Of a stretch of DNA of 64,000 nt, positions 1,598 to 57,237 are shown piece by piece. The stretch is from positions 15,654,645-15,718,644 of the forward strand of contig OZ316893.1 in NCBI GenBank assembly GCA_973895155.1, given 5' to 3'. The translations under genes were made by a program, and so were the position numbers. Source of the DNA: Marsupella aquatica. Lineage: Eukaryota > Plantae > Marchantiophyta. The notes beneath the pieces were generated by a model. That model was given only the letters and a program-made list of their open reading frames with translations, was not told the DNA's origin and searched no databases. The number at the start of each line of letters is the position of its first letter. The first letter of the stretch is position 1.

Positions 1598-3676
1598 TCA
1601 CGGATGCTCCAGAACCTTTGACTGTCCAAGTAGAGTGTGTAAGCAAATTGCTAGGCACATCGTCATGGCCACCAAAGCCTTCGATGCAGTGGCTTGGGCC
1701 AGCTCCCCTGTCTTATTAATTACACGTAAGACTTTGGCAGTACCTGCACTCCTTTCAGATACAGATCCTTTCTCTGCTTTACCTCGTAGCGTCTGTGATA
1801 CCTTGGAGAGCATTACATCAATCGTCGAGCGAATAGCTTCTGACGTCACCGTGCCAGCAACATCCAACACGAGGGCTCGGTTGCTTGGTACAGCTAAAGT
1901 CCGAGAGAATCCCTCAATCCACCCCTGGGAAATTTCGGAAGACTTTGTAGGAAAGACTACTGGCTTCCCATTAATCTGACGGTAGCTTGAGGACGAAAGA
2001 AGAGGCGCTTCCCCCTTGTCGAACTCACCGACTGGCATCTTCTTCTCACTCTGTGGAGAATGATCAAAAGCAATCCTCTTGCTTCCTAAACCAGAGAGAC
2101 TCAAGCTCTCCGAATCATGGCTATCCGGACTCCAAGGAGGTGGTGACCCTGGAGCCAAATGGTCATTCCCTCCATCACTAGTACCACACTCACCTGAAGC
2201 TCCACCGTCTGAATGATCCAACTGATTGAAGCAGCTATTCTTCCCAAGAGAAAAGGTCAAACGCCGGACATCACGACGAGAACCCAGTCCAAATTGTGTG
2301 GACTCCATGGTTTGACTTTGCTGAGGTGCGGACGAGGATGAGGCCACCGATAACACTTCATGAGATGCTCGAACCAAAGTTTCCAAGGCCCCGTTGCAGA
2401 CTGATGTCAGGAGATCCTTCACCGAATCTCTATGTGCAGGGTTAGCGACCGTGCTAAGAATTTCTTCGTAAATGTTGATGTCTCGAGTTTTGTCCAAATA
2501 AACTGAAACCGCCGTTCCTACAAAAGTCTCAATGCAATCCGCAATAAGGGACTTTCCCTTACTGCTACAAATAAATTTTATCATCCCGTCTTGGAGAGTC
2601 CCGGAAGCAGCAGGGGAAGACGTCGGCTTCTTGATAGCTTCCTCGCTGGTGACTCCATCCGTCGCCCTTGCCTTCGGCTGTGGATTCTTAGTGTCTTTTG
2701 CCTCCCACCTCATGGTTCTCAACATTTTGTCCCCTATAATGTTCGCATCGTCCTGGTTCATCTGTTGCATGCCCTCAAGCACAGAGAGGACAAGACTGCG
2801 AGTAGCACTTGCCACCACGACGGCGGCGAAACCCCGGCCGGCCTCGCTGAAAATCTTCCCCACCAGCCGTTCGGGAAGCCCTTCTTCCCTCCTTTCCATC
2901 CTTTCCCTCTTCGGAATTGGAGATCTACTCTTCCTTCTCCCACCACTGCCACTTGTCTCTGCAATTGATGCACCAGTCGGTGACCCACTCCACGCCCTCC
3001 CTACCCCATCCTCATCCTGCTCTCTCAGCCGACGCCCACCTTCTCCGCCTTCATTAAGAAATGCACTATCACCCTTCTCCAATTTTCCCCTCCTGTACTC
3101 GTGACTAGAGTTAACCTCACCTGCATCTTTGAGGTTTGGGGTATAGGCTTCCCCCAAAGATTCCTTCCATCTCCTTTCCTTCCTAAATTCCCTACCTGAC
3201 TTTCCAATCCTTTTGAATCCTTTTCGAGATGATAGCTCTTCAAACAAGGCCGACCCGTAATCGGCCCCGTCTTGCAAAATGGGGGCTTGTTGCTCGAGAA
3301 GACTACTTGCAACGCCTTGAGTGACAGATTTACACAAGAGAGCCACAATTATCTGGAATTCCCGGGTATGGCCTACTTTGAACAATTGCTTGAGGGATTG
3401 AGGTACTTCGTCCTCCTTGGAAAGAAGAAAAGAATGCAGGTCTTTCCACAATACGCCCACGCAGTCGCTTCCTTGAGCAGCAGACTCTAGCAGGGAGGAA
3501 AGAGAACGAAAGAATCGATACAATTGGAGCCGCTTGCGTGTGAGAGATGGAGAATTATAGACACGGTAAGCGACGTACCCCCCCGCACCGATTGCACAAC
3601 AGGCTAAGAGCAAGTTCCGTTGACGACGTGACGTCTGTGGGAACGGGAATGGGAGGAGGCTCTGGAGACTTTCCAT
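1598..3676 (-). CDS. PHLOEM PROTEIN 2-LIKE A10 family protein (At1g10150-like), 692 aa, single coding exon
   Basis: The N-terminus RRQRNLLLACCAIGAGGYVAYRVYNSPSLTRKR..KDLHSFLLSKEDEVPQSLKQL and the core GRGFAAVVVASATRSLV, GKSLIADCIETFVGTAVSVYLDKT, KDLLTSVCNGALETLVRASHEVL and LAVPSNRALVLDVAGTVTSEAIRS match the conserved blocks of this family as I recall them. Low-complexity insertions lie between the blocks. Confidence 0.85.
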   Translation of the reverse strand: MESLQSLLPFPFPQTSRRQRNLLLACCAIGAGGYVAYRVYNSPSLTRKRLQLYRFFRSLSSLLESAAQGSDCVGVLWKDLHSFLLSKEDEVPQSLKQLFKVGHTREFQIIVALLCKSVTQGVASSLLEQQAPILQDGADYGSALFEELSSRKGFKRIGKSGREFRKERRWKESLGEAYTPNLKDAGEVNSSHEYRRGKLEKGDSAFLNEGGEGGRRLREQDEDGVGRAWSGSPTGASIAETSGSGGRRKSRSPIPKRERMERREEGLPERLVGKIFSEAGRGFAAVVVASATRSLVLSVLEGMQQMNQDDANIIGDKMLRTMRWEAKDTKNPQPKARATDGVTSEEAIKKPTSSPAASGTLQDGMIKFICSSKGKSLIADCIETFVGTAVSVYLDKTRDINIYEEILSTVANPAHRDSVKDLLTSVCNGALETLVRASHEVLSVASSSSAPQQSQTMESTQFGLGSRRDVRRLTFSLGKNSCFNQLDHSDGGASGECGTSDGGNDHLAPGSPPPWSPDSHDSESLSLSGLGSKRIAFDHSPQSEKKMPVGEFDKGEAPLLSSSSYRQINGKPVVFPTKSSEISQGWIEGFSRTLAVPSNRALVLDVAGTVTSEAIRSTIDVMLSKVSQTLRGKAEKGSVSERSAGTAKVLRVINKTGELAQATASKALVAMTMCLAICLHTLLGQSKVLEHP

Positions 3677-6061
3677 AGCTACCTCTTCTCTTCTCGTAGT
3701 TGCGGTGCTGCTCGCTTCTGTTGCAGCGCTAGGAGGAATTCAACCTGGAGGGCTATGAGACCCCGCAGCTCATTGATGCAGCCAAGATCACAAATCTTCG
3801 TTTGTCAACCGGAGGTCGCAAACTGGCAAACTATGCAAATACAACAGGTCATTCATACCAGACACAAACGGGGACTTCAAACATTCGTTGTTTTCGCGGT
3901 TCCCGTTTCAACACGAGGAATAAAATTGGCCACCATTACACCACACAGCTGATTGAAAAACACACTAAGTTAACCTCCAGAAATCCTGTTCCCGAGCCCG
4001 CTTGGTTACAAAGAGTCCGTCGTCCCTCTGAAACCCTAATGCACCCTCAACCGAACTCTTGCCGTACCAGAGCTTCAAGAGGAGCAAAGCCGTAGCAGTT
4101 CTTCACAGACCTCTCCCAACAATCCCTGGAATTCCTAAAGAAAGAACAATCGCCCTCATAGCTTCGCCCCTCTACAACCGCACGTCTTGTTTTGTCCTCC
4201 ACCGGAATGGAGTGTAAAGGAAGCTCCGCTGAAGCTATCATAGCAAAGCGAAAACGCTTAACGCAACTCACGTCACATCACGTCGCGTCAGCGATCAGCT
4301 CAGCCAGCTCTGCATCGTCCTTCCACAGACGACAATCCACGGCTTCTTCGTCTGACCAAACTACTGTTCTCCGGGCAGTCTATCGCTCCTCCTCCGTCGA
4401 AACAACCATATACAATCCCTACTAACAAGAGGACGAGTCTGCTTCTACAGAACTGTGCTCCATTCAATCAACAGCAACTTCAAATTCTATAGTATCCCAA
4501 CCGGAAGATCATTAGGTCGTCGCTTCTTCATCTACCAAATTATTGAATGATAATCCCGGCGACGACAACGCCGAGACAGGGACATCGGCCTGCTGCTCTT
4601 CCCGGTTGTGGCATCTTTGATCAACTGATACAGACGATGGCGCTCGTCAGATTCGCTCCACGCGAGGGACGACTGCGGATGAGATGTCGTGCGAAAGAGA
4701 ATTCAGACATCTCAGAGTTGCAGAGGTCGCGTCCTCCCTCGGGGTTTCTGATACGCGTTCGGCCACTCGTTTTTGGAGCAGATTCCTATGAACATGGATA
4801 TTTCATATCCAGCTACCGACATTTCGCATTCACACAATGGATCATTCTCTGCCTCGAAGCGCATCTTCACCAAGCGATAGAAATCGAAGTTCCCCCATAA
4901 ATCTTGGGTGGGGCCAAAGTTCGTTAAAGTAGCAGTAAGTTTTCGTTCCCCAAACGTTTGGTACCGTAATAAGATGCGGTTGGAGAGCGAAACAGTAGTG
5001 TAGGTCCATCGCACGATGGGCCGAGTGTAGAATGAAATCTATGTTCAACTTGTCTCCGACTCTCCCGAGGTTCCTCGTGAGTCTTAACAACTTTACCACA
5101 TGTTTAAGTTGTACACGCGGCAGAGTGTTTCATTGAAGTGGGGCCAGTGCACTTTGTTTACCGTAGTGTAATCCGGGTTTGTGATTCTCCAACTATAATA
5201 TCCAATCCATTGTCCTCTTACAAAAATAGCTCCTCTTACAAAAACAGCTCTGACTGGGAACCATAAACAGCCTTTGGTTTTTTTTTTGCACTTTTTCTCT
5301 AACCATTCAATGCAAAAAGGTGCGAGGTGTTAGGATTTATTCTTAAGTCTAAAATTAGTAGTACCATAGTTAAGGCTAATCTTAGTTGCAAACTTGGTTA
5401 GATTAATCATGCTGTGCACACTCTATAACCAAGCGATGTTTGTTTGAAGAATGGGAACTTAGGTTCATTGTTATGCTTGCTGATTCGCAAAAAAAAAGGC
5501 AAGGCGCATATGGCTCTATGCTGGGCTCCCTATCCCCTCCATAGGGTTCATAGAAGCTATTCCGTGAGAGTTTTTCGGCTAGCTTGCCGTAACCTTGGTC
5601 ACTACTGTTACCCCCCATCCAGGTGCCCCTCGCGCACATGGTGCAGTTACACCTTATCCTCAGAGCACCCCTCCACGGAGCACCGCAATCGGAAGGAGCG
5701 CCTGAACATGGCGTAAATACGGTCCAGAGTCCGCATGTCAGAGCCACATTGGACGCCCCTGCTGCCGCCGCACCTTCGGAATCTATCGATGATTTGTGGA
5801 GAGCTTGGCTCGAGTCGTTTCAGGACCTTTGGGCAGCTTTCTTTATCCCACCGCCATGGACTCGATAGGCCTCTTTGAAGAAAAGCTCAAGCATGAGGTA
5901 ACGGGTGACAGGATTTTGAACCCGATATCGAACCAGACACACCATCAGGTAACCCGTTGATCTATTATACGTAGAAGGTCGGTCCCCTCCGACATGGGCT
6001 GCCGCACCCCCGCGCATATGCCGAAGCCTGGGTAAGCAAAAATATTTCTCTGTTTTTCTTT

Positions 6062-6300: not shown

Positions 6301-9300
6301 AGAAGCCGGCCAGAAGACCCGTGAAGCCAAAGAAGGACGTACTCATAAAGCATATTCTTAGAAATGACCATGAAATAGTATAACTTAGACCTATTTTTCA
6401 TGAGACCTTCGTTCACCAATTACAGAGATATTTTGTACGAACTGGAAAAAAACTTTTCTCAACTTCTGATCGAAATGTATCTCAATTTGCGAGAAGTCTT
6501 AGCATTAGTATGAGTCTTCAGCCATAGGTGCGCTCAAGTCCGTAAGAGTCCGAGTCGGTCATTGTCTGCCTTATCGATTTGCTTGAAAATGCGATCCGTA
6601 ATATAAACCACGAAAAAAATGGAGATAAACGACGATAAAAAACATACTGGCTCCATTAGCATGCATATAACGAAGCAACCAGCCTCCTTTCACATCTCTC
6701 ATGATGTGTTCTACGCTTGAGAAAGCTACGGAGCTAGTTGAGAGATAGGGAAAACTAGTGCTGTGGATGCTTGGTATGGTCGGTCACCCTAGAGTGCAGT
6801 AAAGCTCTTGTGTGTTCCTGTATACATAGTCTCATGTGGAGGTGAATCACGTATCTCTTTGTGTCGACTCTTGTGCGTTGGATGGTTCATGGGCTTGTCG
6901 TTGCGATTGTCGTCTATGCTCAATACGAGGTTGGGGTATTCCGTCCTCACGTCAGGCCTGAGGCATGGGTATACCCGACTGCCCACGACTCCCTCCCTCA
7001 TAATTGATGTATGCCATGTTGCTCAGTGCCCAAGAATGGAACCAATACGCAACCTGACCAGTGCCCACGACTCCTGCCAGGCCCTCGCTTTCTCACTCAC
7101 CCAATTGTGCAATTGTGCAACGCACAAGCATGGTGCTCGTGGATAAATAAATATTGAAGTTTTAGATCTCATTTAAAAAATAAATTAGGTTCCTTTTGAA
7201 ATAGTCCTATGGACCTTTGTGAAATGTATGACACACTTTACACTTCCATATGAAGGGCGACCTGTAACTCTTCACACACCAGTTGTAGGGGGTATTCTGT
7301 TAATTCAGTCGGCATTCCATCAGTTGTAGCTGGTTTCCTTCACTAAGGAACATTACCTAGTCACCCAAGGCACTTAGCAGTACTGGTCTCCTCCCATGAG
7401 CAGAATAGATTGACATTGTGTGCAGGTGATTAAGGCGAGGGATTCAGAACCAGCCATCATGGATTAGTGATTCATTTGTCTTATGTTTGTTGTTTACTTG
7501 CTAACTGATCTACTGCACTGCTTGCTCTATAGTAATACATAGGATCATATCGAGAGGAGAAAGCAATGAAAATTTGAACAAACCATTCAATCCCACAGGT
7601 CGCTTCCCAAACTTTTACCCGTGCTGCCGCTTAGTGATCCTGCTTTTGTTCTAATCTGCTCTTGCTATTAGTGTAACGAGCTTTAATGCCCATCTTTGAA
7701 TGTTAATAGAGATCAAGCACAAAAAGGCCTTTACAAAAGTTACAAAGGCATCTATGTTCTTCCCCTTTCATCTTTGCCCCATCAGTGTTTTTGGTATTCA
7801 CTCAATTTTGTCTTTACATTGAGTTATGGTCAAGAGTTTTCACTTCAATAGTCTAGACCCATCTCTAGCTTCTGTTTGTGCTTTATAAGTAAGATGAGGT
7901 CAGTAGATTCAGTTATTTTGAGGTCCCTGTGGAGTAGTCTGTCTGTCTCCCTCGGTGGGATTTTGTTCGGCACTGGTTATGTTCCCTTTTGGACTTGCCC
8001 ATGTGGGCCTCTTGGGAGGATTGGTGGTGCTGGTTTGGTTGGTACGGGCTTTGTTTACCGCTGGCCGCGGTGCGTGCCCTCTGGGTGGCGTTTGTCCCCA
8101 TGAGCGGCTTTTGGGTTGGGGCCCTTTTCCCCATTTCTTGTAATTAAAAAATAAATAAATAAAGGTAGATTCAGTTATAGCGTCACAGAATTGTGTGGGA
8201 AAAGGGATTGATTTGGATTCTAAAATCACGAAGAGCACACAGCCTTGTGTTTGAATGCATCGAGAGTTTGAACGTTAATGGCATTTTACATCTCTCCAAT
8301 AATATGATAGTTGAGATTTGTCAAAAGCTCTTACCATTTAGGAGAACACTATTCATGAGAACTCCCTTGGTTCCAACAATGTCACCAGCAACATCAAGTA
8401 CACATGTCATTGCTCAAAATGTGTTCAAAAGCAAAGACCAAAGTAACATTTTCAACAAGGTCACCTAAAGTGACCCCACAGTTTGTACTCACCTCAAATT
8501 TTGATGTAGAGTGCTTGTGCACATTCTTATCGCATGTAGAGGGAAAGTGAGAGACCTCTGCCACCAGTACACAACTGGATGGATTGACAGAGGTACACCA
8601 CTGACCGAATCTACTACTCTAGTGAGATCCTAAGTCACCCCAAATGAGCTGGTAAGTCCTCGTTCGTGAGTATCAATTATTGTCAAGTAGTGTATGCTCC
8701 ACACGGGTCCCCTCCAAAATTTATGGACCCCACTAGAGGTCCCCTCCAAAATTCTTGGCATCACATTGTGCCACGTCAACAACAAACAAGACTCATCAGT
8801 TTTGTCTATTTTGTGAATTAAACTTATAGTTTTCATTCGTGTTTGTGCCAATTTGAGTGTAATTTTTGGGATGCCATACCATAAAAAGAAAAGTGAAAAA
8901 TTAGAAATATAAATAGCAAGACGGTTAAAACTGTCACTATGTAACCGTTTTAGTTACATTTCCAATTTTAAAACTTAAATTCAAAGATTTATAAAAAATA
9001 TTTTTCATATAATAAATAAGGACTAATAATTAATTTGATAACTTCCTTGTCAAAGGGTAATTGGCACCTGGAGTAAAATTTTCGGCGCTTTGCAATTAAG
9101 GTAAATTGCTAGTCATGGTCCAAACTTGAACACTCAACGAACTGAAACAATTCATTTGATCAGACATTCATCTAATTACAAATATCGCAAATTGAATTTT
9201 GATTCTCTTAGCTTGAGAATTTGGTAGCATGTACAGAAAAGGCCATTTTGAAAACTGTTTGTGACAACTAGGCTATCAATTAGTCAAGAGGTCGAGGAAC

Positions 9301-9519
9301 TAATTTTAAAATATTAGAAACATCGTGGTGTAAACAGTGAATTTCAATGTTTATGTTTTAATTCAAAAATAAGAACAAGAATATTATTTTGACTTGTAGT
9401 GATTTAATGGAATAAAAAAATACATTGCACACACCTACGCATACCAGGATGCTATGTGGCTGTGTTTACCAATCTGTGATTTTTAGAATTCCTTAAATCC
9501 TCATCGCGAGCATCATTGG

Positions 9520-9602
9520 CCAGGCAGAGTGTCGTACTACGCAACAAGAGTGTTATCATCATTAGTTTCTCCAGGCAGAGTGTCGTACTACGCAACAAGA
9601 GT
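9520..9602. repeat. 32-bp perfect direct repeat, 2 copies, period 51
   Basis: CCAGGCAGAGTGTCGTACTACGCAACAAGAGT at 9520-9551 and 9571-9602. Confidence 0.9.
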
Positions 9603-10181
9603 TTGAGTTTCTTCCGAAGCATAAATTTGCGAATCGTTTGCTGCCATGACATTATCGATGATTGTTCCGGTACTCCCGTGGCTCGCGGAGTCAGAGCCAC
9701 ATGGGGTCCACAAGCATAGGAGTATAGGACATTCCACTGTTTTTTCTGAAAGTGTTTCGCTTGCTTTCTAGTTTGCTGACTCGCGTCCTTTTTCTTATTG
9801 AAAAGGCAAGTACTGTAACTGAGGCATCGATGGAGGCCATTGGTTCCGGAACAACCAACCCCAATTTGCCTCGAAGGCGCAAAATGATTAAAAGGCCCTG
9901 CTCCAAACAACCTGGCAACGACGCAAATCCTGAGTTTCGTTCGTGCCAATAAAAAAGGACGTCGCACGCTTGGGCCTACCACAACGGCAGGCGAATAATG
10001 TCATTTTGTAAACTTAATTACGAGATTGCGCAGCGCAGACTGCACTCCATCGACCAGGGAATAATTCCCCTGGTGTAGTCTGATGCCCTGTTGAAGTAAC
10101 CCCCTTTTTTTTTTTTCTTGTTCTTTTTTGTCGATAGTTGGCAAATCTGCATGCCTGCCTGCTTGGAACGCTTGTGGACAT

Positions 10182-10257
10182 GTCTGCTAAAATTCTTTTG
10201 CATAGTTTACCGCATGGCAGGTCTGCTAGCATTCTTTTGCATAGTTTACCGCATGGC
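10182..10257. repeat. 39-bp tandem duplication
   Basis: GTCTGCTAnnATTCTTTTGCATAGTTTACCGCATGGC at 10182 and 10221. Confidence 0.9.
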
Positions 10258-11624
10258 CTACAGCTACAGGAGAAGTCTCGTTATTATGCTCTCCACCTGG
10301 GTACCCTACTGTAGGGAGGGAACCCTTCCAGAGTTCAGGCGAAGAGCCAGAGGCGGCGTGGCGGGGAGTTCCACTAGTCTCGCTGACCGGAGATTCGTCG
10401 AAGGGTTGTCAATGATCCCGGACCTACGAGGAATCAAACAGGCGAACTCATGTCACGTGAGGGATGTTGAATATGTTGGAAGTAAATAGCGGATGAAGAT
10501 GACCTATCGCAACATGGAATTCCATTTTATCCTTCGCGGTTGTGCTCATGCGCCCGGCGGGTGGTGGAAGTCCAGTAGGTATGGAGTAGACGGCGAGGGT
10601 CGCTCCTGACGCTGGGCCTACTTAAAAGTTGTTCGCAGGAAGAAACAGAATTTTCGTCGGAGAAGGTTTGAATTATAGCATCTGAAGCAGAGCTTTGCAA
10701 AATACAGAAGAAGGATACAAGCTTTTCTTGGTGCATGCTGCTGGTCCTGCGCGCTGAGCTATCAGAAGAAGTGGGAGAGGCACCGCCGCGCTCCCACTTA
10801 TTGCGACGAAGGGAGCGATTCGACCTTAGATTTGACTTTCGAGCTGATTGCCTCGCCCGCGATTGAAGAAGGTATGCATACATCGAATCACCAGTCCGCA
10901 GGGAAACAAAGTGCTCTGCTGACGTTGTCATCACTTTTTATGAACCATTGATTGATATCCTGCCACAATTCCAACATCTGTATTCGAGTGGACTCTTTGC
11001 CTCCAGAGAAGTTGGAAAGTAAGGTTCACAATGTCCCGCATCGCATCGGGATTCTCGTATCTGCAAAAATGTTATATCTTCCTCCACTCAGCCATTCTAC
11101 TTATTTGGTTAATATTTCAATAATAGTGGAGACGCGCACCCTCTGTGCATAGGTTTCCGCCGTTGGTCATGTCGCTTCTCAGGAGCCGGCGTTTGCCACG
11201 TCAAGCTTGTAGCTTCAAGGGAAATGATATTGGGAAGAATAAAGAACTGCGGGCGAGGCACAAGCGGTATTACTGTAGGAGAAGAATCCCGCCGTGATCC
11301 TACTTCTTCTTTTTTGATGCTGCAGCAGTCAGCGGATTTTATTTACCAGACATTTGGTCCCTCCGCCCAGGAACAAGTGCAACGTTTGAGTTGATAATAG
11401 ATTTTAGGAGAATTGTACAGCTAAGAATTTGTTGTATCACAGTAAGGAGAGGCACTAGAGACTCACGAGTTTGAGTGGATATAAGTGTGCGAATTGCCAT
11501 TTCTTCGTTCTAGTCCGGAACTGGACGTGCATTTCGGAGGGGAACTGGTGTAGCTTGAGCGAAGCTCAATCACCTGTGAGTGCTCCTAAAATCAATCATA
11601 TTGTTGGGCTGAATTCAGGTTCTG

Positions 11625-14600
11625 ATGGCGCAAGCATGCATACCTCATTCCTCGTCAATAAGGTAAAATCCGCGTCCCTGTCATAAACCTATTTCGGGCT
11701 CACTGTGACTTTTACACTTCCAGAATTTCTATATCGCTCATGTCTGTGTCCCTCCACCTTCCTCCGTAGTGCGATTAATCTCAGTTTCAGCCATACTACA
11801 ATATATTCTATCAGCATGCAGTTTATCCTTTAGAATTTCCTACCGTTTGGCTCATCGTCGCTCTCCTGTGCTTACTTACTCGCTGGCAGTGGAGCATCAG
11901 TATCATCCCCTCGCTTGCTCTGGAGCCCTTCCGAAGCCCTCGAGAAACCGTGGAGAGCGTTGCAGGAAGTAATTAGGCTGTTGCTGGACAACTTTTAACT
12001 TCTGCAAGCCCTGCTCGGCATGATTCAATGACGCTGTTGCTGGATAACTTGTAACCTTCTGCAAGCTCTGTTCGTCTCGACTCCTTCAAATTCTTTATGG
12101 CCGTTTGCCTTAGTATTCCAAGATTGTAGGAGCATTCAGCTTAATTCAGGCGGTCGTTTTTGTAGATCGTCAATTTAGGGTAACATTATCGTAGTTGGAA
12201 AAATGTTCCCCTATGTTCCCTTGGATCTGCACAAAAGCGCCCCAATACGCCCTACTTTGCGATCCTCTCCCCTTTCATATCAACCATAGTGCCCTCTATC
12301 CAAAAACTTTCGCAAGTCATTCGTAGGGGCTTTACTTGTTCCCTGCAGCGTCCGTTTGCATGTTAGGACGGATGCCTTGAAGGCCTTGATCTCTACTGAA
12401 AGCTTGACAGATTGATAGTCCTGTCCCGAAATGTAGGTTCCCAGCATGTTGCACAAGGGAAATTAGTTATAACATTGCGTCCCTTGTCTTCGCTGCAGAG
12501 CGATCTCATTCCATGAACAAGCCTTTGGAAATGAAGCTCGCCCTTTCAATTTCTTGGAGACTTAATTAATTCTTATCTCTCCTCACCCACGGTCGTGGCT
12601 TTGCGCCGGCCTCTAGAGTTTCTTGTCAGCAAGAGCCTCCCTCTTAAAATGCCGATGAACCTCCCGAGTTACTGAGTGCAAGATTACCCACGCTGCGACA
12701 TGTCAATTCTTCTCTTCGTAGTCCCCAGTCATTTATGTCAGTGTAAGCCATGGAATGATTTCCTTGAATAATTACTTATTATGGAAGTTCTTTAGCAAGT
12801 TTCTTGGTTGGTGACGTTCCGAAACCTACCTAACCTAAAGTAGACGTCTTCAGGTTGGGTGGGAATTTGCTGTTTACAACTTTGAGGAAGGATGGCTCGC
12901 AACAACCGTCGTGGATGGTAAGCAGAGTTGCTATAATATCATAGAGTCCATGCAGTGGCTTCTGTTCGAGGAGAGGGAGACCTCATCAGAATTACTCCGT
13001 CTTGAAGAATCTATCGTTAGTTAACCTGCAACCTCCTTTGCAGACGACCAAATCTAGATTTTGGGGAAACGTCGAGATGCTTGGGTGTGGCAATCTATGC
13101 AGTTCTGGTCGTGGATTTTCTCTATCTGGAAGAGCAGTACCCAATGCTCACAAAGCCAGGTGCGGAATCCATTCGAGTGCTGTGCTGCAATTTGCTGAAC
13201 GCTTGTTATTGCATCTGTCCTCTTTTCCAGGCTTGCCCGTCCCTTAGTTTACCTACAAGATTCTATGATATGCTGTTAATGGTATGTACAAGTAAAATAT
13301 CTGTGGTACAGTACAAGCGTACCGTGAATGTTGGACATTAGAAGTTTCTTTCCCACCGTTCAGAATATGCGACAGGTGCTGAGCGAAACTTGATGACTTG
13401 ATCGATTCCTAACTTTTCTTGTGTTTCTTTGTTAACTCGTTGGCGTGTTGTGTTTACAGGGTTTCGTGCTTGTAATGTCTATTTTCTTACTAACATCTGC
13501 AAGTCTGCACATATGATGTAGGAATCGAGTTCCAAAACTAGTCAGTTCAAGTATTCGAGAGCCTCACCCAAGCAAGAACACAAGCGGTGGAAGTCAATTT
13601 TCAAGCTCGCCAAAAAAACATCAAACCATTTCTGATGGACTTACCCCGAGCAGTTCATCTGCCAGTGCAGCATCAGCCACAGTCCCAACTGTGCCAGTTG
13701 AGGTTGAGGAGTCTGGCCCGGAGTTTTCTATCAGGATGGATAATGAGTCCACTCCGGGCGTGTCTGTGATTGAAATTCAGGGTGTCGACCAGGAGAACTT
13801 ATTGGTTGATGTTACAAGCAGCTTCAGTGAAATGAGAGTAAGGCAAGTTTATCTGAGTTTGTCACTGTTTGACCTATGTAGTTCTGACCTTTATGCAAAC
13901 TATTCTTTCCTTTTCAGGACAACTTGCATATCACCAGTGCAATTGTCTTTCCTGGAATTCTCCGGGCTTGCTGGGACTCTCTGGATTGATGAAATAATTA
14001 CATGGCAAAACCTCTGATCCTTCGTATCTGATACATAAACAGTGTACAAAGTGCAAAAGTCCTTACTAGGAATGATCGTGTATTAGACATCTTCACTGTG
14101 GTGGATTCTGAGACGAAGGCAGCCCTAGATGAAGACCAGTGGCTGAAAGTCAAAGAAAAAGTACTCACCAAGTTGAAACGACGTAGAAGCATTCATGCAT
14201 CTAGAAACGATCCACTCCTTCTGGATCAGGTGCGCCAACATTCTCATCAGGTTGCTGCTACTGTGTACCATTGGCATTAGAAATGTATCTTGTTAAGTTT
14301 GATGTACAAATCAGATTGCAAACTGGATGTATCTGGCCAAATATCAAGTTTCCTTGGTCGCATTCTTTCTGTGCTCGAATTTTGTAAAGTTGGCTCGAGT
14401 GAATGCCTTGCAAAGGAAACATAAGTATCTTACAAATGATAGAGTTCAACTGGGAAATGGACAGGTGTCATTTCTCTGTTCAGCATTGGACAAGGTAGTG
14501 GAGGAACATGGCACTGCAGAAGTAGTTGAAGCCGTGAGTTTCGTTCCTCCTCTCGTTCCAGATCTGTTATTGTCTTTGGGCATCAATTTTATTGAAAGCG

Positions 14601-17600
14601 ATCGCGAGAGTGGTATATCCCTGACATGTTTGATTACATATGGATATGTTTAAGCCCTCTAATTTTCTGTGGAATTGGCTTTGCAGGCATATTTTCTTCA
14701 GAGCGGAATTGAATCTCTGAAATTCAATGAGGATCCTAGGAAGCGAGCGGATTTGCTGCGTTACGTTGATAACATGGAGCAATCAAAGGTAGAGTACTTG
14801 TTTCACATACTTAGTGACAGGACAATGTGATAGGTAGAGCAAAGAGCTGAGGCAGTTCTGGTGGATCCCTGACATACTTGGCTGATGGTTTCCAATCGCA
14901 GATAACTGGAGTCATAAGAATATTCTACCTTTATGCCGCACTTTTAAATGTAGCTGACGAAGCACACAGTCATCGTCAACGGCGGGAGCAGGTGCAGATC
15001 CTGAACCTTGCTGATCTTGTTAAAATGCTTTGTGAGACTTCTTATGTTGTATCACCTGAAGAGTTAAGGATGGAGCTATTGATGTCCGGGTGAAACAAAT
15101 CTGGAATTATTCATTACAGAAATGTGCTGGGAATGCTATGGCTTGTCGTCTTGGATAGAAATCTACACAGATTGGTGCAGGGAATGTGTAGGCGGTTGGG
15201 TTTGCATTGATGCATATTGCTCCTGTACAGGTGTGGGCTAGCCAACATGCCACGCCGTTATGGTATGCGTCTTTTGATCACACTCTTAGACTTTTTAAGA
15301 AAGCTGGTGTTAGTCCCAACGAGCTTCAGGAGCTTTTGGATCGTACTGAGGTGAGACAAGCAAGTCTAAGCTCTTGGTTCCTCCGAGCATTGAATAGCCA
15401 GTTTACTCCACTTCGTACCTTCTGTTAGTTGACTTAAGTGGATGAATGAATCGATATGAAGTTGTGATTTTGACAGATTCTACAGTGCAATTTTCTACGT
15501 TCATCATTCCTGTATCGCTTGAGGGCACGAACTCACCTGCCCGATAAAAGAAAATCTAACTAGTACTGAAGTACGCCCTTTTCAATCTTGCAGTACAGTC
15601 CAGTTTTTACAGCTCATCCAACAGAAGCTCGACGCAGAGAAATTCTCACCTGTCTGCACCGGATCTTTGACCTCTGCATCGCTAGAGAGGTTTTTCCCGA
15701 ATATGTTGAAAACCAAGTAGTGTGACGGCTTCATTTCATTCGTGATCACATTTGCGAATCTGCTAAGTCCAACCTTGTGTCGTTTGTACATACTATCACC
15801 ACAGGCGTTGGATGTCATGTTTCTTGAAAAGAGCGGAGAGATTTTACTGTTGGTCTATTGCGCTGTTAGTCCTACCTTCTATTTAATTGTGCCTAAATTA
15901 CTATACTTTCCTGGTGGTATTGAGGAGACAAGAATTGCTCACGTTGGAAATCATAAACATTTTCTAACAGGACCCAAGGCTGAGCCCTGCACAGAAGACA
16001 GAGATTGAAGCTGAAGTCGAAGCTGAGGTTGGATGATAGACTTACTCGGTTATCCCTGGGTCTTTACTTCCGTTTCATTGTTGCTCTGCTGTCTTATTAT
16101 TCCCCTTCATTGTTTACAGCTTGTGCAAGCGGGTGGTCGGAGCAATTTATGCTAGTTATGAGTTTTCTCTAAGCCTGACATTTTTTCGCCGAGGATCTTT
16201 GTACAAGGGCAGTTGCATGGGCACTTTTGTTCGGGCAAGATGTGCGTTGTTTACAGGGGCAATTGAAAGTAGAATCGTTTTGTTACTGGCAAGACGTTGC
16301 ACTAAGAGGGTGAAAAGAAAGGAACTGCATATTTATTATTTGATAGTCATGTTAATTCTGCTCAAACGGCCGCAGATTGAGATCTTGTGGAGGACAGATG
16401 AAATGCGCCAAACAAAACCAACAGTGATGGAAGAAATCATGACTGGTCTCGATTACTTCCGTTACTCCCTCTTTGAAGCTGTCTGCACTACTTACAGATA
16501 TGCTGAAAATTCACTGAAGGTACAATAGTTCTGTGTCTGAATTCCCTCAAGAGCATAAGCATAATTTGAGTGGAAACTCCGTCCCAAATACATTATTGAG
16601 CCGATTCAATGACTTTAAGACTCAGGGTGGATGATAAGCTTATCATTGCAATTTGGTGGATGAGGCAGCATGTTTATGGAGGTACGGTGGTACTTCCCAG
16701 TTTAATTAAATTTGGATCATGGATTGGTGGTGACCGTGATGGAAACCCTTATGGTAGGTCACAAGTTTCCTATGCATCGGGAAATGATTTTCGTTTGTTT
16801 TTAGCATCTGAAGTTTTCTCCTAATTCATTGAACCATAAGACGTTTGTGAACTCTCGCAGGTTCCTAAACTTTCTGGATGTCGTTTTGCTTCTTTTCTGA
16901 ATGCAGTGCTTCCAGAAACTACTGTTATGGCTGCCCTTCTTGCGAGTAGGCTGATTGTTGCTGAGTACATACGACGGTGTCGCGCCTGTCAGGTTGCTGC
17001 TTTTACTTGCTCGATCTTTCTACAGAGATGACATCCATTGACCGTCTCCTTCTTTCTCGTATTCCCTTCTTAGTTTAGTGCGGCAAAGATTTTCTCGTTG
17101 TCGTTGCATACTGCAATGACTACTGTCTACTTTTTGTGCTGAAATCCATACGAATTCTATTTTTGGATTTGTTTTTATCAACAGTGTAAAAAACATTCAA
17201 AATTAGCTGGTTTAAGTAAGTCATCTTGAGCGATCATGGAAATGTTTCCACGGAACAAATTTCTCCCAATAACTAGGGTTTTAAGAAGCATTTCATTATC
17301 GCAGTCTCTATACTGCTTGTTGTAAAGTGATCATAGACATGTCAGGTTACAACTGTCGTATGACACAAACTATTAAGATGAAATCGTTAGTTGTATTTGC
17401 TGTAGGAAAAATCAACTATCTATTCAGTCATCACGCCTGAGACTTCTGTCTTGTTGTACTGATTCTTTTGAGGTTCTCGCAAATTTCATGGATGTTACAG
17501 GACACATTGACGCAGTCATTGCAAATCTGCAAAGTATCACCACAATTGCTGGAAAGTCTAGAAGAAGACAAAAAGATTATTGAAAAGATCCCTACCCTTC

Positions 17601-20600
17601 GACATCAAGTCGGTGCGTTTGAACAGGTGCTTATTAAGACCGGGTCCGACAATTGTGTTGGTCTCTCTCGAATCTAATTCTCCTGCCTGGCATTGTCAGC
17701 TGGAGGTTTCTAACCAGTAGTATGTTTTATTTCAGGAACCTTACCGCCTAAAGTTGCGAGTAATGCGACATCGTCTGGAGCAGATGCTTCGAACTGTAAA
17801 TGCCCTCTTACGCAAGTTGGGTGGAACTAACCTAAGTGATGAGGTAAACTTAAGCTGGATTTCTTGCTTGTATATCGTATTGCAACAGTTGGAGAGTTGT
17901 CCGTTCTAGACTTCTTGAAGATAGGTTGTCTTTTCTCTGGATATTTGAGGATTGCAATTTTCCCTTTCCTTTCCAGTATTGGAGTTATTGTTCCGCGTAT
18001 CTGGCAAAATTGAATAGAAATAACGTGTAAACTTTGTGCAAATTTTGGTCCAGTTGCTGATTGACATTGAGTACAATATAGATCAAATACCTGGGCTTGA
18101 TCCCAAGGAGGATACGTATGCTGACGAGCGAGGTTTTCTACATGACCTCAAATTGATTGATGTGAGTTTAGTGTTCTCTCTGTATGGGAATTAAACTGAC
18201 TTCCCTTGAATGGTGGAAGGACTCCCTATTTAAAATGCATTCGCAATAGTTTAAGCATCCCGTCTCGTCCAATTGATCAGGATGTAGTTATAGCATAATG
18301 CAAGAGTTTCTCTCCACAAACGGACTCAATTGTCAGGATTCTGTTGTATGGTCTGCAGCGATCGTTGAGAGAAAGTGGGGATGTGCGACTGGCTGATAGC
18401 AAGCTTAAGGATCTGATCCGACTAGCAGAGACTTTCGGATTTCATCTGACTTCTCTGGATGTCCGGCAAGAGTCTACTCTGCATACAGAAGTGCGTGCTC
18501 AATGCTTTCTGTTTTGTGGACATGACAACTGGTAGAAACAAATTAGTTTAACTTTACTTGACAAATTACAGAGTATTATTGTGCGCAACTGCTTCAGATT
18601 TGCTTTGATGTGTTCCGTAAAGTAATAGATGACGTCTAAATTCTTGGGCAGGCTACTGCAGAATGCATGAAGCTTCTGGGCTTTGCAGAAGACTACAAGT
18701 CGTTACGTGAGGAAGAGAAGATGGCCACACTTGCAGAAGCTTTGGCCAAGCCACCTCCTGTTGACAAGGTTGAGGTAAGTGAATAAAACTATTACTTTCT
18801 CAATCAGGCATCTGCTAATGGGCTTATGGACGATGATCTGTGTATCCTAGCTGACAGAAATGTTTTGCAGGGCTTACTGAAGACAGTGTCAGATTCAACC
18901 CGTGAGGTTCTTGGAATCTGCAGTGCTTGTGCGGAAATCATGGACACCATCGCTCCTAAAGCTATAGCATCCTATGTTATTTCTATGACGCGTTCAGCGT
19001 CAAATGTCATGGAGGTGAGTCTTTCCAACGCTTTCATTTATGTGTGCTTTTGTTTTTGCAGATAAATGTTCTATAAAGTTACTTCCCGTAACAGATCTCC
19101 TTTGCTCTGCAACATTCTGTGTTACGCAGGTATTATTTTTAGCATGGTTCACATGTCAAGGCCTAATTGGAAAGACATCGTCCGGTGAATGGAAAGCCAA
19201 CATGGTGGTTTCCCCATTGTTTGAGACAATTCCTGACTTGGAGGTACTGTATTATATCGAGCCTACTTGATCAGGCTGTAGTTTTACCTAGGCCTCTCTG
19301 TCGTGAGGATCTATCAAATCTCTGAATCGCAGCAATTGTCATCTACCGGGAGTTGATGAGGTGGATGGGGTCGATCTGATTCAGAACATGCCCGGAGCAC
19401 TGGAGCTTCTGCTTGAGAACAACATTTATAAAGAAATCTTGGAGGCATCTGGTGGTGTCCAGGTGCGTTGTCAACGACCCTGTAGTCTGACAATTCTTAT
19501 GCGGGTAATGTAATTGTCAGGAGAGCGTTGGTTGACAAAATAGTCTTTATCTGGTAATTTCTCAATTACTAATCCAGGTTCATAATAAATTACAAATAAT
19601 GCAAGCATCCCTGGCAGGTCGGTACAATCTTTTGAGAGTGCTCGTGTTGCTTTGCAGGAAGTCATGCTGGGTTACTCCGACTCATGTAAAGACGGAGGTA
19701 TCTTTGCCAGTGCTTACAATCTGTACAAAGCTCAAGAGGTGATTCAAAGGATCACAAACAAGGCAGGAGTCAAGTCCCGCATATTTCATGGGCGTGGTGG
19801 CACAGTTGGGCGAGGAGCGGGCCCAACCCATGAAAGTGTCCTTGCGCAGGTATCAATTTTGGGTTGCCAGTCTTCTCTCAACTTCTGTACAGGGGTGTGA
19901 CAAGGATTAATGGTATATTGCAATTTTTTGGTGTTTTGTAGTTTGTGAGGAGAGATTCTCAGAAGCGGTCCTTCGAGCTTGTGGTCCTATGTGGGAAAGC
20001 CTCCGACGCCAGCTAGGACTGCATTCCTAATGTTCATGATCTCGTTACAGCCACCCGGGAGCGTTGATGGCAAAATTAAATTCACGGAGCAAGGCGAAGT
20101 CATCACATATCGTTACGGCAACGCTCCGACAGCAACCTATGAGCTCACGGTGGGTCTTGTCAAAACTAGGACCCTCAGTTGGCGACGCTTTCGTAAGTCG
20201 TCAATGTAGGGAATTTTTTTTTAAATTCTGATGAGGTCATATGATTCCGGAAATTAGACTGCGTTGCTCTTTTCATTCAAGATTCACCAGAAATACATAT
20301 TAGACAGGAATGTTGCTGTTCGGAATTACGAAAAATCGGCGCAGACGTTCTTCGCGTTCACGGCGTAATATTTGTGTTTGTATTTTGCAGGTTGGTATTA
20401 CTGGCCTCCTCAAAGCCAGTCATCCGACTACACGCGCAGAGGTGGTGGACAACCAGAAGGTCTGTGCCCTCACATTTGGAATTTTAAAAGTTCAATGTTC
20501 CCACTGAGGTTTTTGATAATGGCTGTTTGTCTTCTCTATATGCGGTTTGTACTTTGTAGAGTTAACACTTGGATGTGGGCGGCTTGCAGTACTTCCAAGT

Positions 20601-22030
20601 TATGGATGAGCTAGCAGACCATGCAGAGAAGCACTATCGAGGATTGACTGACAACACGGAAGGCTTTTATGACTACTTCTATGATTGTACTGTGGTGAGC
20701 GAAATTGGGCTTATCAATATCGGTAGTCGGCCTACCCGACGGAAAGCTGCTGTCCGTGATAAGACGTCCTTGCGAGCCATTCCTTGGGTGTTTGGATGGG
20801 CACAGGTAGGGTCAAGAACTCTTGATGTGAGTCGAGAAAGTCGATCATCTTGACGAGGACATAAATGTAGCTAAACTAATCAATAATTCGTGCCTTGATA
20901 CCCGCCGTCTTCATTACATCGGGAAGTAGCTGAAGAGACAATTTCGGAATCTAGGAGCCTTTTTGATTTGACGGTACTGCTGTCTGGCTGGCAGTCTCGG
21001 CACACGCTTCCGGCTTGGTATGGAGTTGGCAGTGGTATACTTGGATACACTCAAAATGATCCTAGTCGTATTCAGGAGCTTCAGCGAATGTACATTGAGT
21101 GGCCATTTTTCCGCAATTTTCTTTCGAATGTCCAGGTATTAAAATCAAGAACATCTCGTCATTTAGCTCAGCAATTCAAAGGACTCGCGTTGCAGAGACG
21201 TCCTCTCTAGGACTGCACTGCATTTTAAGATTTCGCATCAGTTAATAGTTTTGTCCTCTGCAGATGTCGCTCTTCAAGGCATCCATGGAAATTGCACAGG
21301 AGTATGCCAGACTTTGCAGGTTAACCTTTTTGTCCACACCCCCATCCCCCTCCGTCTCTCTCCTCTTCTTCCTCTTCTCCCTTATCCTGGCAAGTGCATT
21401 GTCACTCATGGATCTCAAGCCATGCAGATCTTTGATTGTACTTCGCTGCTTTAGCCTGCCTAACGTGTGTTCTGTTCATCAAATCGCTCTTGATTGCAGT
21501 AACCGAATCACAGAAAGACTGGTCTACGATTTGGTTTCCCAAGAGTACTCCTTGACGATAGAACAGGTACATCTCTCAAGGACTACAAGATATAAGCAGC
21601 TTTAGTCATTGGAATTCCTATTCATTTGCGACTCTCTTCAAACGACAAGTGACGCTAGAACGCTCGCCTCAGGATTCTACCCGCCTGTGCAGATTTTGAT
21701 GATTTCGCAACAAAATGCACTACTCGAAGATAACGCAGGATTGCAGAGATCGTTCAACACTCGCCGGAAATATCTTGATCCTCTCAATCACATTCAAGTG
21801 AGTTTTCGTTTCTGGCTCATACTAACTTGAAGTTTGCAATAAATAATTTGTGTTGTATTAATTTCCTAGCTGGATCGTCATTTGACAATGGTCGGCTTAT
21901 TGGCTAACAGGTGATCTTGTTGGGGAGAAGGAGAGATCCAACTGCGTCTCAGGAACAAGTCTTAATCTGGGAAAAACCATTGCTGCGAACAATAAAAGCC
22001 ATTGCTAGCAACATGCGAAATACTGGATAG
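11625..22030 (+). CDS. ppc: Phosphoenolpyruvate carboxylase with putative plastid transit peptide and N-terminal ACT domain, about 1190 aa, 31 coding exons
   Basis: Hand-spliced, phase-consistent exons: 11625-11662, 12854-12917, 13044-13159, 13522-13842 (GC donor), 14043-14229, 14465-14533, 14687-14788, 14902-14991, 15231-15350, 15594-15689, 15971-16027, 16376-16519, 16669-16753, 16907-16992, 17501-17626, 17736-17843, 18054-18161, 18359-18490, 18652-18774, 18871-19014, 19130-19243, 19385-19462, 19658-19849, 20051-20149, 20391-20459, 20590-20805, 20995-21135, 21264-21319, 21500-21566, 21693-21797, 21911-22030. PEPC motifs: [97 protein letters not shown] and C-terminal MRNTG-stop. The first three exons are less certain than the rest. 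Confidence 0.93.
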
Positions 22031-34007: not shown

Positions 34008-35728
34008 TCACCTCAAGACAAGATGGTCTATTATTTCAAAATGCATTTGCAAATCTGGGGGCCTCTCACTGAAGTAAAGCCTTTCATTGACTTGAAGTTT
34101 ACCACCTCCATACTTACGAGCAGCCTCCTTCAACAACTGAACGCAGCGGTTCTTCTCCATTACAACCCATCTTCGATTACTATCTTGCCACTGGCGTGGG
34201 GTTCCATGGATTCCAACATAGAAGCCGCCACCTCTTGACCTTGCAGCTTTTGCCAGCCCCTCGAGCACTCTAGGGTCCGTCTGATATGCACCTTGACAAT
34301 TCAACCCAACATCCACATAATGAACCTCTTCAATACTGCTGAGAAAGGCTTCTACGGTAGAAGGTAGTAGTTGGCTTTTCTTCTCTTCTTCGGGTCCTCC
34401 TTTTCTACTCACCTTGTCTTGTAAACTGAATATTTTAAGTCTATGGTCATCATGAGAATTTAAGGACTCCTCGTAATGTACAATCTCCGCTAGCATTTGA
34501 TTGAGGATGACTCCGCCCTTGCTGAAGCCCAAAAGAATCATGGGTGGGCATTTATTCACCAGATCTCGGAAGGGTTCAAAGGGAGATGCCTTTTGTACAC
34601 ATTCATCAGAGCTGCCGTTTTCCTTTCCTTGCAACTCAGCAACTTTGCCATCTTTATGCTTCTCCCGAAGCTGTGCAGCTTTTACCTTCAAGAGAAACAA
34701 TGAAGTTCAACATTAGGAAAAAGAGGGATATTCACGCACAGTATTTTCTGCCTCAATTGACGAGGAAGAGTAAATAGCCAATTCCGAGTAGACAGAGAAA
34801 GGTCTCATCGGGCAATGCTCGTTGGCCAGTACCAGTTGTTACTGTAGAGCCTCCAATGTACATATTTTTGCACAAAGATATTATCTGCGTAAGCCAATCT
34901 TGGAGAAAAGGAAACCAACTAATACTGAGCCAACTATCTGTCACTGCAAATGATACCCCTGTCCTATCCTCTGTGATTTGACTACCGACTCGTACACGTG
35001 AATTGAGGCAGATGATACTCTTCAGTACAATCTTCCATTACATGATTTAGCATAAAGAGATTGATAACCTGCGTAAGACAATCTTGGAGGATGGAGAAAC
35101 AGGCCCGAGCTGCAGGTAAGCCTTTGGGTTTGTAACCTATGGGTTCTCCAGATGCAGTCAAGCTAGGTAAAATGTTTTCATAGCAGGCAAATGGGCCCTT
35201 GTAAACTGACGCTTCCATGATCCACAAGTTCACAGGTTGTTGGCCAAGCTTGGGAAGCAAGGCTGCTGCAATGTTCTCCAAATGCGAGAGGCGTTCCACT
35301 ATTGGATTTGCGGACTCCCTCACTCGATCTCCCACAAAGAATATAACATTGCTTGCCGGCTCCTGCTCTCTACCCCACAAGACCAGCAATCCACATGCCG
35401 AACATTGTTTCAATTACAACAGTGTGCAAGTCGTTGCTTCTTTGACAGTAGACACAGAAAATTTGCAACATCACAATCACGAAATTGACTAAACCCTAAG
35501 AAAATGAAATCACATTTTTGTGTGCAATCATACTGGACAGGGCGAGAAAGGAAGGACAGGGACAGGAAAACAACCAGGGACAGGGCGAGAAAGGAAGGAC
35601 AGGGAGGGAATGAGTCAAACCACAAGAGAGCCCGAAGAAGTGCATGCCAACGAAGCCAAAACTCGGAATCCATGGCTGCTGCTGCTCCTAAGATTCAAGA
35701 CTCCTTTCCATCGTTGTGCCGTAGCCAT
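34008..35728 (-). CDS. C2orf69 / UPF0565 family protein, 3 exons, about 359 aa
   Basis: Exons 35728-35621, 35362-35069 and 34685-34008 (phase-0 introns) give MATAQRWKGVL..FRVLASL..EPASNVIFFVGDRV..GPFACY..GEPIGY..LLGFSKGGVILNQ..VHYVDVGLN..HGTPRQW..LQMHFEII, the family motifs. Confidence 0.88.
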
Positions 35729-55598: not shown

Positions 55599-57237
55599 TT
55601 GGATTTTATGTTGGGTTGCAAATGAATTGCATGTTGTAGTTGGATGAGGTGGTGCTTGCTTCTTTGCAAGATGTGCTCCATACGCACAATCCTTATGTGC
55701 TGATGTTCAAAAATGCCAGGAGCCCCATTGATGATGTTGAGGTGTCTCAGGTTTTGCTACGTCTTGTAGTTGAACATGACACCAACCCAAGACGTTACAA
55801 TAAACCCATGGCGGATGAGATTGGTGTGATCATGGTTGGGGATGAGGATATTGAAACACGTGGTTGAGATATTATCCTCAAGACAAGGGACGGCGGCCTA
55901 CATAGGATTTTGGAGTGGCATAGGTCATATGCTCCTCTCCATTATGTCTTACTCTTTTTGCATGGTCAAGACGGGTGGTCTTATGACATCCCATTGGTGG
56001 GCCATGAATTTCAAGACGCGGTTACTGGGGCAGTTCAACCCCAAGCAAGTGGTGGACGCAATGGCTCCAAGAAGGTTACACAACTACAATACTATGCGTT
56101 ACTTGCTACATGCAAGGCAGGGTGATGATTGACTGCTTTGTGGAGGGAAATTGCTAAAGCAATATATTGTGGACGGGTATGCATGCATAGATCAAATGCA
56201 ACTGACCTATATTTGCAACAATAAAAAAAAGTTGCGCACAGAACTATATCAAGGGCTTCAAGATGTAGTTCAAGACAAAGATGGACGTGCAGATGATGTA
56301 ATTATATAGGGCCTACATTTTGCCATCCTCATATGGGGGTAGTGCCCGCAATATGATGCAGGCATACCAAGACGCCATGGTCATTGTACGCACATATGGT
56401 CCCCCTGACCTTTTACCACATTTACGTGCAATCCTGAATGGCCAGAAGTCAGAGCAAAGTGCTACCCTTATCAGACCCCGGCCGACCAAGATGACATTGT
56501 TGCTCAAGTGTTCAAACTCAAGTTAAAGGCATTGTTGGCGGTCATTTGTGCAGGGGTCTTAGGTAGACTTGTTGCCTCTATGTATGTCATTGAGTTTCAA
56601 AAGAGGGGATTGTCATATGCACACATTTTGATCAAATTGGTTGAACGCCATAAACTACGCACGCTAGAGTTGGTTGACCAATGAGTCCTGCAAAGATACC
56701 AGACGTGCAGGTGTATCCGCAATTATTTTAGACTATAACAAAATGCATGGCGTACAATGTAGCAAGGGCTACATGAGACTATTCTCAATTGAAACAGTTT
56801 TGGGGGATGGTGGGTATCCCATGTATCGATGTCAAGATGATGGACACAATTTTACAAAGGACCAAAGCAAGTTTAAGTTTGATAATAGGTGGGTTGTTCC
56901 TTATAGTCCATACTCGAGCATGAAATACAGCGCTCCTATTAATGTGGAAATATGTTGCTCTATCCAAGCCATTAAGTACTTATATATGTACTGCTACAAA
57001 GGGCATGATAAAGCAACACGGGAAGCAACAATGGAGGTAGAGCAACGTGATGAAATAAAAGAGCATTTAGATGCTAGGTACGTGTTTGCTATAGAAGGAG
57101 TATAATGGTGGATTAATCAGTTTGAAATGTCAAAGAGTAGTACTTTGGTGCAACGGCTACAGGTGTCGGGATAGGTGCATTGTGAGGGGGGACAATTGAT
57201 TATGTTTCATGAAGATTCTGAGATCATTGATGTGGTC

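Follow-up and report, generated by a model that had tools for sequence, protein, structure and literature searches.

A window of 64,000 nucleotides of Marsupella aquatica DNA (contig OZ316893.1, positions 15,654,645 to 15,718,644 of the forward strand) contains a gene for phosphoenolpyruvate carboxylase (PEPC) on its + strand, in which three small 5' exons encode an N-terminal leader. The protein runs in the order leader, ACT domain and PEPC core, and the green-lineage proteins related to it form one clade apart from the plant-type enzyme. With good confidence, the leader is read here as a chloroplast transit peptide on an ACT-bearing PEPC of a third green-plant lineage, which would be stromal and tuned by an amino acid. 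The first-pass annotation, made from the letters alone, had proposed these three exons and a plastid-localised PEPC, a kind of enzyme that it described as rare in land plants.

Gene model and leader exons

The gene model was obtained by spliced alignment of the window DNA guided by a single protein, the Calypogeia fissa ortholog P0001, which had been found using one downstream exon as the query (95% identity). The model comprises 31 coding exons (11625–22030) encoding 1190 residues with no internal stops, and 30 introns, of which 29 are GT-AG and one is GC-AG. The splice sites of coding exons 1 to 3 (11625–11662, 12854–12917 and 13044–13159; 38, 64 and 116 nucleotides) are GT donors and AG acceptors, and the exons connect in frame, with phases 2/0/2, to 13522. 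The same boundaries had been reached in the first-pass annotation, and its leader translation is that of the exons as joined. The four sequence runs, which consist of contigs, showed no joint at the leader introns, a result that speaks neither for nor against the exons.

Exon 1 holds the start codon and leader residues 1–13 (9 of 13 identical to C. fissa), exon 2 residues 14–34 (20 of 21) and exon 3 residues 35–73 (29 of 39), and the N-terminus of P0001 agrees with the encoded peptide. The 5' part of exon 4 (13522–13723) supplies the end of the leader and a Ser-rich linker up to residue 140. The ACT domain (residues 141–234, 13724–14205) is divided between exon 4 (to 13842) and exon 5 (from 14043), and the catalytic core (residues 240–1190, 14221–22030), placed by the match of PF00311 to the ortholog, occupies exons 5–31 and ends in RNTG. 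The single GC-AG intron is intron 4 (13843–14042), which lies within the ACT domain and is required for both the frame and the residue count; its donor context is strong, and a GT four bases upstream would disrupt the frame. The Spirogloea gene models skip or read through this spot, so annotation errors are likely there.

Leader residues 1–73 aligned to C. fissa with a score of 306 (79% identity) and to two Marchantia orthologs with scores of 88 and 92, none of which was equalled in 2000 shuffles. For Riccia, three mosses, Diphasiastrum and two algae, the scores did not rise above chance, being reached in 93 to 1868 of the 2000 shuffles; that leaders cannot be aligned beyond the liverworts is expected of transit peptides. 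The SRFWG motif, which had been offered as a transit-peptide feature, belongs to the encoded leader, although as a word it is not conserved, C. fissa having L for W. Among the 41 open ATG-started 12-mers in 8001–12850, the one at ATG 11625 matched the C. fissa start with a score of 41, compared with 9 for the runner-up, and in-frame stops lie immediately upstream of this ATG. For variants of a related organism, B, the leader exons held one of the 39 listed sites of 11625–13521 against 4.5 expected (P ~0.05); 7 further sites fell outside the listing, and this weak signal was not relied on. The three leader exons are almost certainly coding.

The transcript may begin upstream of them, as judged from sequence, with a likely 5' untranslated exon of undefined start (10678–10871), which has its GT donor at 10872 and an AG acceptor at 11617–11618. 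In tblastn, the stretch 10678–10871 was matched weakly (E 0.002 and 0.016) by the additional N-terminal segment of a longer C. fissa model, P0122. The start of P0122 was considered as the true start and rejected because the corresponding window DNA carries stops; this DNA also has a frame change and no in-frame ATG past the last stop. The first exons of the public models P0122 and P0002 (Riccia sorocarpa) are probably wrong for this gene, and errors of this kind would keep targeting predictors from seeing the leader. Contigs 85–92% similar to two pieces of the gene (13709–13789 and 14462–14837) were present in all four sequence runs, with at most 10 contigs at 13751; they are possibly degenerate copies or repeat-captured gene pieces.

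The PEPC core, the ACT domain and their clade

The core of the C. fissa ortholog, to which the window core is 94% identical, matched PF00311 as a full-length domain (901 bits, E 1e-270, model positions 3–919). Seventeen E. coli positions, which we take to be catalytic, metal and aspartate-site residues of PEPC, were checked in 23 clade members: 14 were invariant in all 23, one was kept in 22, and two, E433 and R704, were not conserved. The residues present in the window model as well as in all 23 members include H138, R396, E506, D543, K546, H579, R581, R587, R713, K773, R832 and N881. With its catalytic residues intact, the enzyme is a predicted PEP carboxylase.

An ordinary plant PEPC to which a leader had been added, whether plant-type (as is rice Osppc4) or the bacterial-type PEPC of plants (BTPC), is largely refuted as an explanation and keeps only a minute probability. 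The RNTG end fits the (R/K)NTG of BTPC, although most bacterial PEPCs share RNTG, so that it is not diagnostic, and the PRK00009 cut-off was passed (835 versus 815 bits). Set against this, the core scored 363–385 bits with solved plant-type PEPCs (28–30% identity) and 360 with E. coli PEPC, compared with 886 for the best bacterial representative cluster. The core is 47–52% identical over 881 trimmed columns to PEPCs from a group made up mostly of gammaproteobacteria; its identity to the plant-type and E. coli enzymes is only ~30%. Plant-type PEPC is marked by an N-terminal phosphorylation motif, SIDAQ; this motif is not in the protein, and the C-terminus is RNTG rather than QNTG.

In the portions of Shu et al. 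2022 that were available, Marchantia has separate plant-type (973 residues) and bacterial-type (1060 residues) genes besides the third-lineage gene, and the Marchantia and moss genes are binned as 'PEPcase superfamily', apart from both types. The separate Marchantia BTPC and this binning argue against orthology with the AtPPC4 clade; the tree described below was built without BTPC sequences. BTPC (AtPPC4, Marchantia PTQ41595) resembles the clade enzyme in its RNTG end, its PRK00009 match and its lack of the plant-type phosphorylation motif, but it lacks a leader, its PEPC domain beginning near residue 19, compared with about residue 240 in the clade enzyme. These comparisons support the assignment of the predicted enzyme to a third green-plant PEPC lineage, neither plant-type nor bacterial-type.

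Residues 141–234 matched the GlnD model PRK05092 (E 6e-11) at the last ACT domain of GlnD, and an ACT profile matched that domain at 52–68 bits. The predicted model has the ACT fold, with its four strands and two helices in the order strand-strand-helix-strand-strand-helix, at a predicted local distance difference test (pLDDT) value of 88, and match and fold together are those of a GlnD/ACR-type ACT domain. An atlas search with the domain returned ACR-type clusters at 0.85–0.89, which was taken as a lead only. Among 473 sequences, no bacterial PEPC had an N-terminus that matched the ACT profile, and the only one of the 150 best representatives with an alignment spanning the domain was a plant sequence. 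The domain is thus not found on the bacterial PEPCs examined, and the fusion likely arose within the green lineage.

A spacing of Asp/Asn, Leu at +4 and Phe at +35 was retained in 21, 23 and 23 of 23 clade members, respectively. The same spacing occurs in Chlamydomonas AMA2, a likeness that rests on spacing and not on alignment with the AMA2 sequence. According to the available parts of PMC11190351, AMA2 also has a putative transit peptide and, at its N-terminus, an ACT domain that shares this topology and confers glutamine activation, and is likewise an enzyme of carbon metabolism. A Leu110 change nearly removed its glutamine response, and an Asp106 change left the response intact. AMA2 is nevertheless a different enzyme, and its glutamine activation was measured (PMC11190351), whereas that of the clade enzyme is suggested by likeness to it. 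By this analogy, the ACT domain probably binds an amino acid; glutamine specifically is a tentative choice of ligand, held at somewhat less than an even chance.

The best 120 of 7531 matches of a profile search consisted of 21 green-lineage proteins at the top followed by 99 of bacterial length. Named clade members came from the algae Pterosperma, Mesostigma, Chlorokybus, Coleochaete, Spirogloea and Mesotaenium and from the land plants Calypogeia, Marchantia, Riccia, Physcomitrium, Ceratodon, Sphagnum and Diphasiastrum. All three liverwort and all three moss genera named among the matches have the gene, with one locus each in Marchantia and Physcomitrium. The plastid location proposed in the first-pass annotation is supported, as set out below, but the enzyme is not a rare retargeting of an ordinary plant PEPC such as rice Osppc4; it belongs to a separate ACT-bearing lineage found in all these liverwort and moss genera. 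No fern or seed-plant member was named among the matches of the word-based search, which suggests loss in most vascular plants. The hornwort protein AANG007402, in the available part of supplement 1 of Shu et al., has the domain-match pattern of the Marchantia and moss members (358–1149, 845 bits) and is likely an ortholog.

In a FastTree phylogeny of 105 sequences and 881 columns, which took in 41 of 149 bacterial representatives and for which E. coli was chosen as the root, the 23 green sequences formed one clade (Shimodaira–Hasegawa (SH) support 1.0) that branched roughly in species order. The clade adjoined 17 proteobacterial-type sequences, including Thioalkalivibrio, Thiohalophilus and Sulfurirhabdus (SH 0.91). 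PEPCs of these and related proteobacteria have the closest core, at the 47–52% identity given above, but are ~930–970 residues long and lack the ACT domain, leader and introns. Given the limited taxon set and the chosen root, we infer only that an early green alga acquired the core from a proteobacterium and that, in this alga, a transit peptide and a GlnD/ACR-type ACT domain would have been fused to it.

Leader composition and plastid location

Leader composition was compared in 18 of 24 clade members, the other six being left out as apparently cut at the N-terminus. At most three Asp/Glu were found in the first 60 residues of 16 of the 18, compared with 3 of 138 bacterial homolog N-termini, and the mean was 8.3 acidic residues per segment of the core. 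The two acidic residues counted in the first-pass annotation are correct for the first 60 residues of the M. aquatica leader. Residues 1–140 of the ortholog were unstructured (pLDDT <50) in a full-length model that was poor overall (mean pLDDT 54) and was used for disorder and secondary structure only. The protein therefore begins with an acid-poor, Ser/Thr-rich, unstructured extension that is not on its bacterial homologs, and cleavage likely falls near residues 80–85, a position that is a guess. The leader as a query yielded no usable match in the atlas.

The leader might instead be a disordered regulatory or tethering tail on a cytosolic enzyme that is carried along when plastids are purified. 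At 140 residues, the leader region exceeds the usual length of a transit peptide, and the 79% and 40% identities of residues 1–73 to C. fissa and Marchantia are fairly high for one. The depletion of acidic residues, on the other hand, is confined to the first 80–120 residues and is seen in the clade all the way from prasinophytes to a clubmoss, and the cytosolic plant-type PEPC was scarce and variable in the plastid preparations of Marchantia. In supplement 1 of PMC13419835, the ortholog MARPO_0030s0078 (Mp8g17440) was represented by 20, 20 and 22 unique peptides in the three replicates of purified plastids, compared with 2, 1 and 10 for the 973-residue plant-type PEPC and 0, 0 and 3 for the 1060-residue BTPC, both assigned by length match to the genes of Shu et al. 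The count for Mp8g17440 was thus flat across the replicates while that for the cytosolic plant-type PEPC varied, and of the three Marchantia PEPCs only Mp8g17440 was in the filtered plastid list (PMC13419835). The regulatory tail is accordingly a very improbable reading.

Import into mitochondria, or into both organelles, is also improbable, though marginally less so. Basic, acid-poor leaders suit either organelle, the hydrophobic moments of the leaders (0.10–0.47) gave no separation of the two, and the plastid fraction contains mitochondrial proteins. All 18 leaders, however, have at most two Arg in residues 2–15, and residue 2 is Ala in 11 of the 18. In the data available from the plastid fraction, the mean normalized spectral abundance factor of Mp8g17440 was also twice that of citrate synthase (3.8e-4 versus 1.9e-4).

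Import into the plastid is highly probable, and the plastid location, though not proven, is well supported by the acid-poor leaders across the clade, the disorder of residues 1–140 and the presence of the Marchantia ortholog in all three plastid replicates. The proteomic presence concerns that ortholog only and comes from published mass spectrometry with some contamination; the available main text of PMC13419835 does not mention Mp8g17440. The moss chloroplast proteome of PMC5095126 contains two PEPCs, Pp1s83_144 and Pp1s91_24, which could not be mapped to the clade, and none of six gene ids was present in the supplements of the organelle atlas PMC11135702.

Several points weigh against the transit-peptide reading and its ACT and lineage components. 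Two leaders are less acid-poor, with 7 acidic residues of 60 in the Riccia model and 4 in M. paleacea. Mitochondrial citrate synthase is also in the filtered list (6, 3 and 7 peptides; PMC13419835, as available), the peptide counts come from the plastid fraction, with no whole-cell control seen in the accessible material, and the literature offered neither an N-terminal peptide nor an import assay or reporter fusion for any clade member. Pfam ACT-type matches were under the cut-off in seven of eight clade queries, and the three conserved ACT residues may be structural, given the intact AMA2 response after the Asp change. The tree contained no plant-type PEPC, plant BTPC or named cyanobacteria and included no clade test.

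Possible role, known systems and neighbouring features

In the proposed mechanism, the leader would direct the 1190-residue enzyme into the chloroplast and be cleaved off there. The stromal PEPC would join bicarbonate to PEP, giving oxaloacetate, and an amino acid, most likely glutamine, would bind the ACT domain and tune the enzyme. The oxaloacetate would feed aspartate synthesis and, after export, provide 2-oxoglutarate for glutamine synthetase/glutamate synthase (GS/GOGAT). A role in ammonium assimilation is suggested by analogy to rice Osppc4 and grass ppc4, which, in the available parts of PMC9358456, is likewise a chloroplast PEPC with a transit peptide and is tied to ammonium assimilation. 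Osppc4 differs in being a plant-type enzyme that was targeted early in the grasses, whereas the clade enzyme has another core, an ACT domain and a far greater age.

The plastid location could also be right and the role another: carbon concentration, refixation or malate-valve redox export, with an ACT domain that only oligomerises. The clade is oldest in aquatic algae, and the top structural matches of the ACT domain were ACT-like domains of plant basic helix-loop-helix factors, the best Foldseek match being that of GL3 (E 3.7e-4). Such domains are dimerisation modules. The best sequence matches, by contrast, were GlnD and ACR-type domains, which are linked to glutamine sensing, and carbon concentration is not known in the liverworts and mosses that retain the gene. 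This role is unlikely, though it keeps a real share of the probability.

A broader scenario consistent with a nitrogen-linked, amino-acid-tuned enzyme is offered as speculation, with rather less than even confidence. The ancestor of green plants would have had a glutamine-sensing PEPC in the chloroplast, formed by joining a GlnD-type ACT domain to an enzyme of proteobacterial origin, and this PEPC would have coupled the supply of stromal carbon directly to nitrogen status. It would have been kept in prasinophytes, streptophyte algae, bryophytes and clubmosses and lost in ferns and seed plants, and the grasses would later have re-invented a plastid PEPC from a plant-type gene.

Part of this lineage has probably been met before. 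In the accessible text, Yue et al. 2012 (PMC3493653, GI 168029489) listed a Physcomitrella PEPCase of gammaproteobacterial origin as moss-only, and Peng et al. 2012 (PMC3521007, A9SLH0) included one moss PEPC among transfer candidates. This PEPCase has the same donor group as the clade and, by an inferred id link, very probably belongs to the same lineage as the clade member Pp3c12_10250 (1179 residues); neither account, in its accessible parts, mentions a transit peptide, an ACT domain or green lineages other than moss. The Isoetes genome paper, as available, describes two PEPC clades. No account of the clade's plastid location, ACT domain or age was found in a search that most subscription journals lay outside, and a prior description is possible.

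Two types of plant PEPC are recognised in reviews and genome papers, with a single plastid exception, that of the grasses; the clade points to a third type, which is abundant in liverwort plastid preparations and whose regulatory domain was absent from every bacterial PEPC examined. It would redraw the picture of carbon and nitrogen metabolism in the plastids of early land plants, and a 'moss-specific' gene transfer would move back to early green algae.

Elsewhere in the window, an open frame of 713 codons on the - strand (1601–3739) had no Pfam match and by eye resembles a plant single-exon gene. Broken frames at 56300–60700 look by eye like pieces of a Helitron helicase; Pfam gave no match at E 0.01 for the two that were searched. 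A cytochrome b fragment on the - strand (6574–6783; PF00033, E 3e-20) is probably an organelle insertion in the nucleus, and an exon of a C2orf69-family gene lies on the - strand at 34011–34706 (PF10561, E 7e-14).
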